A DNA stretch of 64,000 nucleotides from Candidatus Latescibacterota bacterium (GTDB lineage: Bacteria > Krumholzibacteriota > Krumholzibacteriia > WVZY01): positions 160,001-224,000 of the forward strand of contig CAWBQK010000013.1 of NCBI GenBank assembly GCA_963791045.1, given 5' to 3'. Positions within the stretch are counted from its first letter, which is position 1, and the number at the start of each line of letters is the position of its first letter. Position numbers: made by a program. Positions 42,001-48,000 of the stretch are shown here, in pieces.

Positions 42001-45000
42001 CCCTGACAGTGTTCAGGATGTTTTCACTCATGCGTATCGGTCAGCGCCTGCGTGATGAGACGGAATACGCTCAAAGCAAACGCGAACCCAAGAAGAAGCC
42101 CCTCAAGAAAAACAAGGCCTCCGACATTTCCGTAGTCCATGCGCGTAAGGAAAAGCGACAGACACAAACTCACCATCGCTATCGGGAGCAGTAGATTTCC
42201 CTTTTTTCCGAGCATGGCGACCTCCCTGTTGTTCCGGCTTGATATCCTGCCGTCGCCGGTATCCCTTCCCCGCCGGTGGACGGCGGAGCAGTTTTTCACT
42301 TGCATTTTATGTAAAGCATGCTTTACATTTGAGATCCAGTCCGAGCCCTTCACAATGTCAAGCTGACTTTACATTCTAGAATAACCCCCCCACCCAAAAT
42401 TGTCAAGCTGACTTTACATTTTTTGAGACTGCCGTTGATTCGAACGGAGCTCGCCCACGCTCCACGGGTCGAGATTCCCCGATAGGCAAATTTTCTTGAC
42501 ACCCCTCCGGGCCATATGTTCTACTCATTCAGCACGTTCAGAAACATTTGTAATTAGCTTATTATTATGGAGATATACGTGACAAGGCTCAAGCAGCAAA
42601 CGGAAGACCCGCTTGACATCTTCATAAAGGGATGGGGACGGATGGGAATCTACTGGGGAGTCGGCAAAATGATGGCCGAGATCCAGGCCCTTCTCTATAT
42701 GAGCCAGGATCCTCTGGGTCTCGACGAAATGTCCGAGCGGCTAAAGACCAGTCGAAGCAACATCAGCCTCAACGTGCGCGCCCTCCAGGATCTTGGCGTC
42801 GTGCGGAAGATCATACTTCCCGGTGACCGCAAGGATTATTACACCGCGGAGACCGACCTCGAGAAGGTCGCGCGGAAACTCGCGGCGGTTAAGAAAAAAC
42901 GGGAGCTCGACCCGGCGCTTGAAATCGTCAACCGCACTTTGAGCGCGGCCGATGGAAACAACGGTGGGATGAATCCTGTCGGCAACGCCGTCGACACGCG
43001 CCGGCTCCAAGAGCTGGGAAATCTCATGCAAAAAATCGGCAGTGTTTTTGAAATGTTTATTGAAGACGACGAAACGGATAGCGATACAAAAACCCATAAC
43101 ATGTAAAGGGTCATCTTAGACATGTTGAACGCGATGAAAAAATACGAGGCTATGGGTTCGGTAATCGATCGCTGCAACGCCAGAGTGCTCGAGATCCTCC
43201 AGTCGAGCGACGTTCGCGAGGCGAAAATTGCCGCCGAGAGTTTCAAGAACGGCGGTAAACGCCTCCGGCCCGCTTTGATGATTTTGTCATCGCTCGCACC
43301 GACAAACGAACCCCTCGACGTCGTCGATCCGCCGCTCATCGATCTCGCCGCCGCGGTCGAACTCGTCCATTTGGCGACTCTCTTTCATGATGATGTTATT
43401 GATGAGGTTGAGACCCGCCGTTCCCAGCTGAGCGCGCGAGTCAAGTACGGCAATCATGCATCGGTTCTGGCCGGTGATTATGTTCTCGCCGAATCCCTGC
43501 TCCTCGTCCAGAAAAGCGAGCTCGCGCATACGATGCCCGAGTTCTTGAGGACTATCAGCGTCCTCGTCCAGGGCGAAAGCCGCGAGACAACCCACAAATT
43601 TGATTTCGATATCAACGAAGCCGCGTACTACGAGATAATTTCCGAAAAAAGCGCTTCCCTCTTCGCGTTGAGCTGCAAAGTCGGAGGGATGAGCCGTGAC
43701 TCGGAGTACGCCGATTTGCTGGGCCATTTTGGGTGGAATCTCGGGATGGCATTCCAGATGATCGACGATCTCGACGACATGCTCGACCTGCCGCGGGGGA
43801 TGGATGACTGCGACCTGAAGAACGGGTACCTTGCCCTTCCCCTGATTCGGACACTCAACTCGCTTCACGACGGACACCGGGAAGAACTCGTGGATATCAT
43901 TCGCGCGGGCGCGTTCACACCTGAAAACGAAAGACGGATCGTCTCGTTGTGCCGGGAACACGGCGGGTTCGAAGTTACGGCCAACGCGATCCACAAACAT
44001 CTCGACAGGGCCGGAGAAGCGATCGGCCGGTTCGAATCCGAGGGCGAGGCGCGGGTGCTTCTCGAGAATGTAGTGCTCGACCTCAAAACCTATGCGGACA
44101 TGCAGATAACAGAGCTTGCCGAGTTCACCAAAACAGGCAATTAGATATTTTTCATCCAGCCGCTTGCGCCAACAAAATCAAAGAAGAACGCTTAAGGGGG
44201 TACCTGTCTTGTCGACAAAGAAAGATGTGGGACAGCTGTTCAACGATCTCGAATCGAACTTCGAAACGTGGGAAAAGGTCAAGGACTGCGCGGACCAGTT
44301 TATCGATATAATTCTCAACTATCGACAAAGCGGTCATCCGGGCGGCTCCCGATCGAAGGTCCACGCCTTTGTCGCGACACTTCTCGGCGGCATCATGCGG
44401 TGGGATATCCGCCACCCCGAGAAAACATTCGGCGACCGTTTCATCCTCGTTGCCGGCCACACGGTCCCTCTTGTATATGGAACACTCCCCGTTCTCTTCG
44501 AAGCCATGCGAACAAAACACCAGCAAACGGGCGACGACAGGTATCTCGTGGCCGACGCGAAAGACAGGGGCTTGTACTGGGAGGATCTCGTCGAGTTCCG
44601 CCGGAACAAGGGCCTGCCCGGTCACGCCGAGATGGAAGGCAAGACGCTCTTCCTGAAATTCAACACCGGCCCTTCGGGTCACGGCTCCCCGGCCGCCGCC
44701 GGCCAGGCGTTTGCGCTCAAGAGGGCGGGGGCTGGAGACGTCAACGTTTTTGCTTTTGAGGGAGAAGGCGGACTCACACCGGGCGCGGCACACGAAACAA
44801 TGAACTCTGCGTGGGGGCTCGGCCTCAGCAATATGATTTACGTGATCGACTGGAACGATTACGGCATCGACGCTCACAAGTACAGTTCCGTCATCGACAA
44901 GAGCCCGCGCGAGTGGTTCGACGCGCACGGGTGGCGGGTTCGCGAGTCCGAAGACGGCAACAACTGGGAATCCATCACGCGCTCCCTCGTCGATATCGTC

Positions 45001-48000
45001 CACGGGGACAATCCCGACAACCGCCCAAACGCGGTGTTTATGAAGACCCGCAAAGGCCGCGGCTACCTCAAGTATGACTACGCCTCTCACGGGGCTCCGC
45101 ACAAGATGAACTCGGATCTTTTCTGGCAGACGAAACAGCCCTTCATGGAAAAATACGGAGTCGAGTTCGAAGGATACAACCAGCCCGCCCCGGATGACGC
45201 GGACGCACAGCGCGAGCAGATGAAAAACAACCTGCAGGTTGTTGCCGACGTCATACGAAACGATCAGGCGATGGTCGACTCTCTCGCCGACACGCTCGTG
45301 ATGCTGGGGGATTCGGTCCCCGATAAACCCAGTGCCTTGAAAATCGATCTTTCCCGCAGTCCGCTGGAAGATCCGCGGTTGTTTGATTTCAAAAACTATC
45401 CGGAAAAGATGTTCGCCAAACCCGGCGACAAAAAACCCAATCGTGCGGGACTGGAAGCATTTGGCTCCTGGGTGAATTCCTGGTGCGGAAAAGAATACAA
45501 CCGGCCTCTCTTTATCGCGATGAGCGCGGATCTCGCCGAGTCGACGAACATTGCCGGGTTTGCCAAAGATTTCGACGGGCAAAAGGGATACGGGTGGTAC
45601 GAGCGCGACGAGAATCCGGACGGAACGCTCCTTCCCCAGGCGATCACCGAATTCGCGAACTCGGGAATCTCGGTGGGTCTTGCCTCCGTGAATTTCTCGC
45701 CAAAACCATTCGAGACATTCGATGGATTTCTCTCGGCGTGTTCAACGTATGGCTCGTTCTCGTATCTCAAGTACGGAATGATGCGGCTCTTCAGCCAACT
45801 CGCGCAGGACTCGCCGATAAAAGTGGGGCAGGTGCTCTGGGTGGTCGGACATAGCGGACCCGAAACGGCGGACGACTCGAGGACTCATTTCGGCGTGTTC
45901 TCCCCGGGCGTGACACAGCTCTTCCCCGAAGGCCAGGTGATCGACGTCCATCCATGGGAGTACAACGAGGTTCCCGTGGTGATCGCCGCCGCGCTAAAGA
46001 CCGGCACACCGATTGTCGCGCTTCATCTCACGAGGCCCCCGATCACCATCCCCGACCGTAAGGGACTTGGCATGCCATCGCATTTCGAAGCGGCCAGGGG
46101 CGCCTACGTGATGAGACCCTACAAGGACGGCGAGCCGCGAATGGGCACCGTAGTGGTCCAGGGAACGTCGACCACGAACAACGTCACAAAGATCCTGCCG
46201 GCTCTCGACAAAGAGAACCTCAACGTGAAAATTGTCGCGGCAATCAGCCCACAGCTTTTTGCCGCGCAAAGTGCGGAGTATCGTGAATCCGTGTATTCTC
46301 CACAAGATCGCATGGACGCGATGGCCGTCACGAACCGCTCCCGGCGTTTGATGGCGGACTGGATCGATCCTTCAATATCGGCGGATTTCACCCTCAGTTC
46401 GGATTGGGATGACAGGTGGAGAACCGGTGGAACACTCGATGAAGTAATCGAAGAAGCGAGACTGTCAGCCGACCACATATTGGACGGTATACGCCGCTTT
46501 GCAAACGCGCGCGCCGAACGGCTGGCCCGGATCGAACGGATCCTCAACGGTATCCGTTGAGGCCATCACTCAGAAGCAGGCGCCAAATCCCCTGCTCAGC
46601 TCTCCGGAGGTGGGGTTGATTTTGGCGCGACAGGCGCGGCCCCAGCCGGAACCGCATCGAGACGTTCGCGCTTCGCCCGACTGTAGACAAGCCAACCCGC
46701 GACAATCAGCACCAGCGGCCACAACCGGATTAGCGGTGTCAAGACACGTGATCCTGACGAACCGCGGACAGCCCAGAAACAAACCACCGCTGCGATCACG
46801 GCGGCGAGACCGACAACCAGCGCGGCCCCCGGACGGTCCCCCGTCGCGCCGAGTGCGAGGAGTCCGATTCCCGCGATCAGCGGAAAGAACGGCCACAAAA
46901 TTCTCATCTCCCCCCACGGGAGCATTCCCGTGGAAAAAACAAAGAAAAACGCGCCCAGACCGGACATTACCAATCCGGCAAACAACTGCTCGGGCGCCCT
47001 GCCGCTCGCATAGACCTTCAGCAAAAACACACCGCCGATCAGTGGAAACAACGGCCAGATGGCTTCCCATCCGAACCACAGGAGCCCGTTGTTGACCAGA
47101 AGGAAGAGAAGCCCGAGACCGGCGAGGAAAATGCCGAGAATTTCCCTGTTTCTACTCTTTATCATTGTTCGTCCTCTTATGGTTTGGCGACGGTAGATTC
47201 TTGAACGCCCGTGGAAAAAAGTCAATGAAATGTGAATTGCCAGCATCCGGCAAATCCAATATACTGCGTTTGCTCGAAAAAGGTGTATCGACCGCGGCGT
47301 GACAATCCCGTCACGTCGAAATCCCAAAAGAGAGTCAAACATCATGATCGGAGACAAGGTCGTTCCAAAACCTCACCACACGGCGGCGGCGGAAGCCATT
47401 TTTGTCCACCTCAAAAAGAGAATGGAGAAAAAAAGGACGGCAATCACCGTCGCAGGCGAGTCAGGCAGCGGCAAATCAGAGATAGCCGTCGAGCTCGAAA
47501 GACTCCTGGCGGGCCAGGGGGCTAAGCCCATCATTTTTCAGCAGGATGACTACTTTTTTCTTCCCCCCGAAACCAACGCTCAAACCAGGAAGAAAGACAT
47601 CAAACATGTGGGGCTCGGAGAGGTAAACCTCGCGCTGCTCGACGAGCACGTCCGACTGTTCAAATTCTCACCGGCGGACGAGATCGAAAAACCGCTCGTC
47701 ATCTTCGCCGAAGACCGCGTGACAAAAGAGAAGACTGCCCCGGCAGACTTTGATGTCCTGATCGCGGAGGGCACTTACACCACGCTTCTCAACCACGCCG
47801 ATTTCCACGTCTTTATTGACAGAAGCTTCGAGGAAACGCTCGAACATCGCAGGGAACGCGCCCGCGATCCACTTGACGAGTTTTCGGAACGTATACTTGA
47901 GATCGAACACAACATTATTTCAAAACACAAGAGCCTGGCCGAAATCGTTGTAAACAACGACTACACGGTCACATGGGCCGGCGATTGACACCAAGGGAGA

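Follow-up and report, generated by a model that had tools for sequence, protein, structure and literature searches.

The window analysed here is a stretch of 64,000 nucleotides, and a gene for a predicted long (GEG-type) transketolase of family A is located on its forward strand at 44209..46560. The open reading frame starts with TTG and encodes a product of 783 aa, for which an identical 783-aa entry is present in the protein database. The Pfam domains, together with the structure model and Foldseek, place a PP, a Pyr and a C-terminal domain on a single chain. A polyprenyl synthetase gene recognized by Pfam (43122..44144, forward strand), mentioned here as context only, lies 64 bases upstream of the start, and no such gene is among the 70 largest clusters of genes neighbouring 80 family-A loci. 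The same genome also carries a family-B gene (C4:62600-64960, reverse strand), encoding 786 aa.

Proteins A and B share 27.7% identity over 730 aligned positions, in agreement with the survey's finding of two long families of about 785 aa that are 28% identical. In global alignments, each is 22-23% identical to the canonical transketolase (Tkt) of the same genome and 22% identical to Escherichia coli TktA; the 24-31% given earlier for canonical Tkt holds for local BLAST pieces. With the NCBIfam transketolase models (TIGR00232; NF004556/8/9), A and B score 68-133 bits, far under the curated cut-offs of 488-788 as had been claimed, and the best PDB sequence match was obtained at E 1.2e-21 (previously 1e-21). 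Both proteins pass Pfam Transketolase_N with 68.8 and 58.6 bits (cut-off 22). The claim that these genomes are misread by pathway annotation as having no such enzyme was overstated, since JGI names both A and B transketolase and NCBI does so for A. Of the 120 matches listed for A, 49 are named, and every one of these is called transketolase (42 by JGI, 7 by NCBI); for B, this applies to 38/38 JGI names, and 12/14 NCBI names read 'hypothetical protein'. In a literature search, no paper describing the phylum as devoid of transketolase was found. With curated models for families A and B and for a third one, C, the NCBI 'hypothetical' names of B and C would be corrected.

Fold and active-site residues

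The AlphaFold models of A and B have pLDDT values of 94.0 and 93.3 and align end to end with solved transketolase structures (Z 37.4 over 636 residues for A and Z 37.3 over 633 residues for B, both with an rmsd of 2.4 Å). Pfam, the models and the structure alignment agree that the PP, Pyr and C-terminal domains are arranged as in transketolase, and every Foldseek match listed is a transketolase. Among the solved structures searched, no member of the A/B lineage was found, with a best identity of about 22-24%. In the ESM Atlas, the clusters nearest to a homologue (P0024) consist of automatically named Transketolase_N proteins of 748-840 aa, none with a characterised name.

Residue conservation was assessed in 119 relatives each for families A and B, using the numbering of E. 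coli TktA. In the window protein, the catalytic and donor-binding histidines His26, His66, His100 and His261 correspond to His43 (44335..44337), His84 (44458-44460), His139 (44623-44625) and His294 (45088-45090), and the acceptor-hydroxyl and donor-binding residues Asp469 and His473 to Asp556 and His560 (45874..45888). The cofactor-activating Glu411 is Glu481 (45649..45651), and Asn185, the second Mg2+ ligand of the cofactor motif, is Asn216 (44854..44856). Arg358, Ser385, His461 and Arg520, which are described as the substrate-phosphate site in PMC11387542, correspond to Arg412 (45442..45444), Ser445, His548 and Arg609. All of these features are encoded on the forward strand and are present in 119/119 family-A relatives. 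Across both families, H26, H66, H100, N185, H261, D381, S385, E411, F437, H461, D469, H473 and R520 are found in 119/119 relatives of each, and R358 in 119/119 of A and 118/119 of B (one gap). The catalytic, donor-binding and activating residues (H26, H66, H100, H261, H473, E411 and D469) and the phosphate-site residues required of a transketolase are therefore complete in A and B.

The cofactor motif is altered. At residues 185-196 of the window protein (44761..44796), Glu186 replaces the Mg2+-binding Asp155 and Pro191 replaces the proton-wire Glu160, and Glu196, equivalent to Glu165, is kept. In terms of the GDG-X(25-30)-N motif, Gly and Asn are retained and the Asp ligand is changed to Glu, in 112/119 relatives of A (Asp in 7) and 117/119 of B (Asp in the rest). 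The catalytic motifs listed in the survey do align with Tkt, but two points were overlooked: both families have GEG in place of GDG, and the window protein has DD instead of ED. In human transketolase, Asp155 is reportedly essential, a point against transketolase function in A and B. The same Asp to Glu change occurs in 7% of ThDP decarboxylases (PMC3534367), and because of this precedent, GEG lowers the status of A and B as canonical enzymes but not the expectation that they work like a transketolase. Position 160 is Pro, Thr or Ala in 238/238 relatives of A and B. The proton wire described for canonical and human-type Tkt, consisting of the glutamates E411 (E366), E160 and E165 (PMC10688766), consequently lacks E160 in A/B, with E411 and E165 kept. 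Both families also share three invariant changes, L116S, F434Y and Y440L.

Phylogeny, distribution and pathway context

Families A, B and C form one clade (support 100/99, full length), apart from the E. coli-type, human-type and split enzymes, and in a PP-domain tree that includes three split genes, A+B+C fall on one side of a branch (91/93). These trees were careful builds on 21 and 24 rows, and a 42-row tree was a quick search only. A/B do not belong to the canonical, human-type or split Tkt clades, and A/B/C are also separate from DXS and from AceE, the latter represented by one row on a long branch of unsure position. A and B are thus sister subfamilies of one clade and not two separate families as first described. 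The clade is also not specific to Krumholzibacteriota; it extends over many phyla, and at least 581 GTDB loci from many uncultured phyla carry the lineage. Viral contigs yielded no relative, and 73 plasmid records matched family B, with 23-25% identity only among the 25 matches listed. No named cultured carrier was seen among the matches listed, where all named records are MAGs. A literature search, confined largely to openly accessible papers, returned no description of the clade or of a GEG transketolase. We propose that A and B are true transketolases, by predicted activity, of a separate, old lineage, here called long GEG-type.

In 151 genomes of the phylum, A is present in 94, B in 62, either in 147 and both in 9, which extends to a larger sample the survey's finding that nearly all Krumholzibacteriota carry one or the other. 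The two largely replace one another by family (B in 0/60 genomes of f6 and 33/33 of f5). Canonical TIGR00232 Tkt is confined to a minority, as had been noted (40/151), and the long form occurs in 109 of the 111 genomes without it. Six of these 109 also carry a human-type or split-type gene, leaving 103/151 with the long form as the sole transketolase candidate found, again in line with the earlier claim for most genomes. Canonical Tkt accompanies the long form in 38/147 genomes, and the source genome of the window also has one.

Rpe is found in 148/151 genomes and in 100/103 sole-form genomes, and 96 of these 103 have no match to 6-phosphogluconate dehydrogenase (6PGD). In five chosen sole-form genomes, transaldolase (5/5), RpiB (5/5) and chorismate synthase (3/5) are present, with phosphoketolase, 6PGD and HxlA over cut-off each in 0/5. 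In genome G025 (two contigs, 97% complete), the only Transket_pyr proteins are DXS and family B. Among the other Transket_pyr matches, none reaches E <= 1e-22 with Transketolase_N, and one (L143) is presumably a 2-oxoglutarate dehydrogenase E1-type sequence, which it resembles by motifs. The sole-candidate status in 103 genomes, together with Rpe in 100 and the missing 6PGD match in 96, indicates that A/B, as predicted transketolases, fill a real pathway hole.

Predicted function and alternative readings

Taking together the fold, residues, clade, distribution and pathway hole, it is highly probable that A and B are ThDP transketolases (EC 2.2.1.1) and that one or the other is the housekeeping enzyme in most Krumholzibacteriota. 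They would act as E. coli TktA does, with a ketose phosphate as donor and an aldose phosphate as acceptor of a two-carbon ketol unit. The domain arrangement of the monomer models suggests a dimer, in which the active site would be shared between two subunits, and Mg2+ is probably bound by Glu in place of Asp. The proton wire between the subunits lacks its Glu160 link, so coupling of the two active sites may be lost. Together with transaldolase, Rpe and RpiB, the enzyme would supply most Krumholzibacteriota with ribose 5-phosphate and erythrose 4-phosphate. Being the only transketolase candidate in most genomes, A/B probably run the pentose-sugar metabolism of most of the phylum, where the long form is probably essential. 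Counting against this assignment, pentose-phosphate gene neighbours are found at 1/80 A loci, 0/39 B loci and 0/20 sole-form loci of the phylum, and in Limnocylindria at 1/20 long-form loci versus 19/20 conventional transketolase loci. Outside the phylum, the long form coexists with some conventional type in 5/5 tested genomes, and in Limnocylindria with conventional transketolase in 19/20 genomes examined. Together with the 38/147 in the phylum, this suggests that its role is not fully redundant with Tkt, and in other phyla it may have a second role beside a normal transketolase.

The gene neighbourhoods point to a possible donor. A class I aminotransferase is located within 6 kb of 23/80 A loci, in 21 cases directly upstream on the same strand, and near 9/39 B loci. 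In Limnocylindria, it is near 12/20 A loci versus 0/20 conventional loci, and 7/7 family-f1 orthologues of the C4 aminotransferase directly precede B. Among the adjoining aminotransferases, those of Acidobacteriota, Spirochaetota and Krumholzibacteriota form one clade (FastTree support 97); the others are from Limnocylindria. D-2-hydroxyacid dehydrogenases are found at 10/80 A and 2/39 B loci, HpcH aldolases at 4/80 and AP_endonuc_2 barrels at 6/80 A loci; in addition, a NAD_binding_2/NAD_binding_11 reductase is encoded at one NC10 locus and a serine dehydratase at one B locus. The background in the window's own genome is three aminotransferase matches and one dehydrogenase match per 3.66 Mb. 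The loci with 2-hydroxyacid dehydrogenases hint at hydroxypyruvate as donor, and it is possible, though rather unlikely, that ketol transfer from hydroxypyruvate is the primary activity of the lineage, with the partner aminotransferase (from serine) or dehydrogenase (from glycerate) providing the hydroxypyruvate. Decarboxylation would then be followed by addition to an aldose phosphate, for example converting glyceraldehyde 3-phosphate to xylulose 5-phosphate and CO2. This is compatible with the transketolase assignment and, with transaldolase, would fill the same pathway hole; by microscopic reversibility, an enzyme of this kind would be expected to pass ketol units from one sugar phosphate to another as well. 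However, neighbours of this kind are absent from all 20 sole-form loci of the phylum, from 45/80 A loci and from 30/39 B loci, and the loci are not independent, with 14 of the 21 direct A pairs in one Chloroflexota clade. The aminotransferase is similar to aspartate aminotransferases and is over no NCBIfam cut-off among the matches listed, whereas serine aminotransferases usually belong to class V. The sugar-acid operons with putative dehydrogenases and barrels could simply supply sugar phosphates, no residue marks a preference for hydroxypyruvate, and ordinary transketolases also accept it (PMC7661550). A wider reading, likewise rather unlikely, is that the GEG-type clade is an ancient separate transketolase class with native donors including hydroxypyruvate, on a route from serine, glycerate or sugar acids to pentose phosphates. 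If so, many uncultured phyla would have an undescribed CO2-releasing route with an aminotransferase or glycerate dehydrogenase, in addition to the textbook non-oxidative pathway or in its place, and the clade, without its Glu160 wire, would be a natural non-cooperative transketolase.

It is improbable that A/B are ketol transferases for other sugar phosphates (of the apiose, sulfo-sugar or tetrose type) and that their being the only homologue in the phylum is incidental. Some Chloroflexota loci do lie within sugar-catabolic clusters, one (L095) adjoins a split transketolase pair, and the invariant L116S, F434Y and Y440L changes would fit, but the near-universal presence with mostly one family per genome, the sugar-free neighbourhoods of sole-form genomes, the four intact residues of the phosphate site and the pathway hole do not. 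A pyruvate-using relative is very improbable. In favour of a DXS substitute, A/B share Lys at I247, Tyr at F434 and the E160 loss with DXS, and a polyprenyl synthetase gene precedes the window gene; this identity was rejected, with that neighbour not recurring among the largest neighbour clusters, a separate normal DXS gene in 146/151 genomes, a TIGR00204 score of 15.8 bits versus a cut-off of 465.95, and His kept at the His100 position, which is Phe in DXS (PMC7661550). AceE-type pyruvate dehydrogenase E1 aligns to A/B at Z 32-33 but with an rmsd of 3.4-3.8 Å, a poorer fit than Tkt, and is disfavoured, as is phosphoketolase: the length is near the 790 aa of phosphoketolases, and the Atlas features search of the homologue lists these from rank 15 onward, but XFP, XFP_N and XFP_C have no match at E <= 0.01 in either protein.

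As predicted transketolases, A and B extend an enzyme family of core metabolism by a deep lineage. They offer natural tests of Glu as a possible Mg2+ ligand in a transketolase and of the Glu160 proton wire, which may be required for function or for cooperativity only. Transketolases are in use as C-C bond-forming biocatalysts with hydroxypyruvate, and a distant scaffold would be useful.

Comparison with known enzymes

AniP/siAniP, the ThDP enzyme of anisomycin biosynthesis, is likewise transketolase-type and sets a precedent, since its donor is a 2-oxo acid and its gene has an aminotransferase and a dehydrogenase as neighbours; by its described features, it differs in being DXS-like, keeping GDG and using aromatic keto acids (PMC11387542). 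DXS resembles A/B at positions 160, 247 and 434, as given above, and differs in Phe for His100 and in having no equivalents of R358, D381, S385 and H461 in the alignment.

The human-type single-chain and split-gene (TktA1/TktA2, Carboxydothermus) enzymes have the same fold (Z 32-33), a Lys at the I247 position and a similar HAG/HSG motif before D469. They are 19-22% identical to A/B, keep GD and Glu160 and group together apart from A/B/C, and the human type has Gln at H473, where A/B keep His. Canonical TktA (E. coli/yeast-type, TIGR00232, EC 2.2.1.1) has the three-domain single chain in common with A/B (Z 37, rmsd 2.4-2.7 Å), and all of its donor, acceptor, phosphate and activating residues are conserved in them. 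In contrast, A/B are about 120 aa longer, with eight insertions and a C-terminal extension, at 22-23% identity. They have GEG for GDG, no Glu160 and the L116S, I247K, F434Y and Y440L changes, form a separate clade and are rarely encoded beside tal, zwf or gnd.

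Sequence, fold and descent of the long forms

The gene at window positions 44209-46560 on the forward strand (P0001, TTG start, 783 aa) encodes the family A transketolase, and its family B paralogue (P0002, 786 aa) lies at C4:62600-64960 on the reverse strand. The source genome also carries a canonical Tkt on contig C6, where a transaldolase gene comes next, and a normal DXS gene. Families A and B share 27.7% identity across 730 positions, and each shares 22-23% with canonical Tkt. Both pass the Pfam model Transketolase_N, and NCBIfam transketolase models score them at 68-133 bits against cut-offs of 488-788, in agreement with the survey's finding that they lie far below transketolase cut-offs. 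The best match in a PDB sequence search had an E-value of 1.2e-21. The extra length consists of eight insertions of 6-22 residues each and a C-terminal extension.

AlphaFold models were obtained with a mean pLDDT of 94.0 for A (130-row alignment) and 93.3 for B (111 rows). Every row shown by Foldseek for the A model is a transketolase. In VIA-align, bacterial transketolases match the A model with Z 37.4 (rmsd 2.4 Å, 636 residues) and the B model with Z 37.3 (2.4 Å, 633 residues), whereas human-type transketolases and AceE reach Z 32-33, the latter at 3.4-3.8 Å. The whole predicted chain superimposes on Tkt, so that the domains are placed as in Tkt, whose active site is described in a section of PMC7661550 as lying between subunits, unlike that of DXS.

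Active-site residues were compared with E. coli TktA (whose numbering is used) in the 119 top relatives of each family, which are 62-88% identical to the query; remoter members differ somewhat. Invariant in both sets are H26, H66, H100, N185, I189, H261, D381, L382, S385, E411, F437, H461, D469, H473 and R520, and R358 is kept in 119/119 A and 118/119 B relatives. The catalytic and donor-binding histidines H26, H66, H100, H261 and H473 and the activating E411 are thus retained, and the survey had also claimed that the catalytic residues are kept. Since DXS has Phe in place of His100 (a passage of PMC7661550), this histidine points to a hydroxylated ketol as the donor. The Mg2+ ligand D155 is replaced by Glu in 112/119 A and 117/119 B relatives. 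Asp155 is termed essential for the human enzyme in the title of a cited reference; the same exchange in the GDG motif is given for 7% of ThDP decarboxylases in part of PMC3534367, so it need not abolish function. None of the 238 relatives keeps E160, in whose place stands Pro, Thr or Ala; E160 belongs to the human proton wire E366/E160/E165 (an excerpt of PMC10688766), which has been tied to cooperativity between transketolase sites (PMC6834573, in part). Further invariant departures common to A and B are L116S, I247K, F434Y and Y440L.

When representatives at 50% identity were searched with a profile, the best 150 contained about a dozen full-length members, and these sort into families A, B, C and D. 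Family C (850-870 aa, 36% identical to A, with SGHF and GEF motif variants) was found at L041:7838-10450 (G006) and L042:7713-9932 (G051), beside genes that we take to be for a carbamoyltransferase-like protein and molybdenum-hydroxylase small subunits. Its named relatives are Dehalococcoidia/Chloroflexota MAGs, and those in Dehalococcoidia MAGs are numerous, mostly unnamed or 'hypothetical' at NCBI. Family D (P0323, P0325; 736-753 aa) retains both Asp155 and Glu160 and, as sister to A/B/C, is possibly an intermediate state. An ESM Atlas cluster of 748 aa, candidate kin of D, is commonest in Magasanikiibacteriota.

In a careful 21-row tree, A, B and C fall on one side of a branch with support 100/99, D joins them at 100/99, and canonical, human-type and DXS rows are separate. 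A 42-row quick tree is concordant. In a PP-domain tree with three split-gene N subunits, A+B+C is supported at 91/93 and the split genes cluster with the human type. The outgroups in these trees are sparse and come largely from this phylum, and rooting depends on one long DXS branch. The survey's two families are thus sisters within a single lineage.

Distribution in Krumholzibacteriota and pathway context

Across 151 genomes sampled from the phylum, of varying completeness and not independent in kinship, A is found in 94, B in 62, either in 147 and both in nine. Near relatives in database records carry the names Krumholzibacteria/Latescibacterota. The two split by taxonomic family, B being present in 33/33 genomes of f5 and 0/60 of f6. 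Canonical Tkt occurs in 40; of the other 111 genomes, 109 carry a long form. With Transketolase_N at E <= 1e-22, human-type or split-type genes come to light in eight further genomes, and in six of these a long form is present too. A long form is the only transketolase found in 103 genomes, so the survey was right both on its presence in nearly all genomes and on its being the sole candidate in most.

Rpe is present in 148/151 genomes, including 100 of the 103 sole-form ones, and DXS in 146/151. Matches to 6PGD occur in 22/151, only seven of them sole-form. Five sole-form genomes picked for completeness (G001, G008, G025, G055, G079) all have transaldolase and RpiB, and three have chorismate synthase; phosphoketolase, 6PGD and HxlA above cut-off were found in none of the five. 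In G025 (2 contigs, 97% complete), the only Transket_pyr proteins are DXS and family B. As the remaining non-oxidative pathway is present and no other ribose 5-phosphate route was seen among those tested, the missing step in sole-form genomes is most probably carried out by A or B. In G079, a transaldolase domain (C1:3253761-3254786) lies within a 961-aa open frame, probably a fusion protein. In seven genomes (G033, G063, G069, G070, G083, G112, G031), 6PGD matches lie within about 6 kb of a conventional transketolase on the same contig, which suggests that in this phylum the conventional type travels with an oxidative pentose-phosphate module.

Gene neighbourhoods and a possible hydroxypyruvate link

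In other phyla, the long form usually accompanies a conventional transketolase, which is present in 5/5 long-form genomes tested and in 59/61 genomes of Limnocylindria, the class of G151. In this class, 20 long-form loci (best-scoring weak matches chosen by eye, all family A) were compared with 20 conventional loci, of which 18 lie in these very genomes. Genes for zwf, gnd, opcA or tal lie beside 19/20 conventional and 1/20 long-form genes, and a class I aminotransferase lies within 6 kb of 12/20 long forms (11 directly upstream) against 0/20 conventional ones. A distant class II aldolase-like gene is near family A in 8/20 of these loci. The best 80 of at least 581 confirmed GTDB loci, which share at least one locus with the Limnocylindria set (L133 and L201, on contigs of equal length), have an aminotransferase in 23 cases (21 directly upstream), a D-2-hydroxyacid dehydrogenase in 10, an AP_endonuc_2 barrel in six and an HpcH aldolase in four; at least one of these occurs in 35, and a pentose-phosphate gene in one. 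Among 39 metagenome B loci, whose median of 7.9 kb leaves short flanks, the counts are nine aminotransferases, two dehydrogenases and no pentose-phosphate gene. In the source genome's family, the C4 aminotransferase has seven orthologues, all lying before B. A gene similar to class II fructose-bisphosphate aldolase divergently adjoins B at L176, L182 and L191.

Serine, glycerate and tartronate semialdehyde can each be converted to hydroxypyruvate, which is proposed, from the neighbourhoods, as the common thread of these genes. A hydroxypyruvate-linked native role would fit the Limnocylindria aminotransferases. The aminotransferase neighbours fall into at least four lineage sets, of which the ones from Acidobacteriota, Spirochaetota and Krumholzibacteriota lie in one clade (FastTree 97). 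A precedent is AniP, which is of the transketolase type, takes a 2-oxo acid as donor and has an aminotransferase alongside (part of PMC11387542). Such a role is less likely than not, and several observations speak against it: the linked aminotransferase resembles aspartate aminotransferase, below all cut-offs shown, and neither 20 sole-form phylum loci nor the window gene have aminotransferase, dehydrogenase, barrel or aldolase neighbours, the 20 loci lacking pentose-phosphate genes as well. That A and B are working transketolases is considered probable, and in most of the phylum they are most likely the housekeeping enzyme.

Upstream of the window gene, on the same strand, lie a MarR-type regulator and a polyprenyl synthetase (42567-44144); nine sigma-70-like sites occur in 42300-47400 against 1.8 expected, five between 42329 and 42592. 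At 47299-49251, a PRK/uridine-kinase-like P-loop protein is followed by a sucrose-synthase-like GT4 glycosyltransferase, the latter recurring near family A in 4/80 of the best GTDB loci. Two tandem paralogous large secreted proteins, alike in N- and C-terminal parts, occupy 33165-39801; the second is split over three ORFs (36456-38462, 38372-39031, 39022-39801), which suggests frameshifts or sequencing errors. The 552-aa protein at 55289-56947 has no Pfam match at E <= 0.01.

Range, annotation and place among known transketolases

The best 80 GTDB loci are all family A and come, among others, from Chloroflexota, Acidobacteriota, NC10, KSB1, Caldithrix, Neomarinimicrobiota, Spirochaetota, Caldisericota, Eisenbacteria and Sumerlaeota. 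MAGs of Planctomycetota and Deltaproteobacteria are among the named relatives of B. Among 120 matches listed for A, 49/49 named relatives are called 'transketolase' (42 JGI, 7 NCBI), as are 38/38 JGI names for B, whereas 12/14 NCBI names for B are 'hypothetical protein'. The claimed mis-annotation is thus true in part, for B at NCBI, and the functional assignment itself is not new, since some pipelines already make it. Some split transketolase subunits are missed by KOfamScan, according to a portion of PMC11964587, and transketolase is unmentioned in a passage of a Krumholzibacteria paper (bioRxiv 2020.09.22.307553).

A search of openly accessible article text found no description of the A/B/C clade. 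What appears to be new is the clade itself, together with its motif, its standing as sole enzyme and its seemingly different roles between phyla. Single-chain transketolases are given as 600-700 aa, plus split forms, in an excerpt of PMC7661550, and passages of PMC2831816 name no long-form subfamily; beside these, A and B are a genuine variant, so far undescribed, of a known enzyme.
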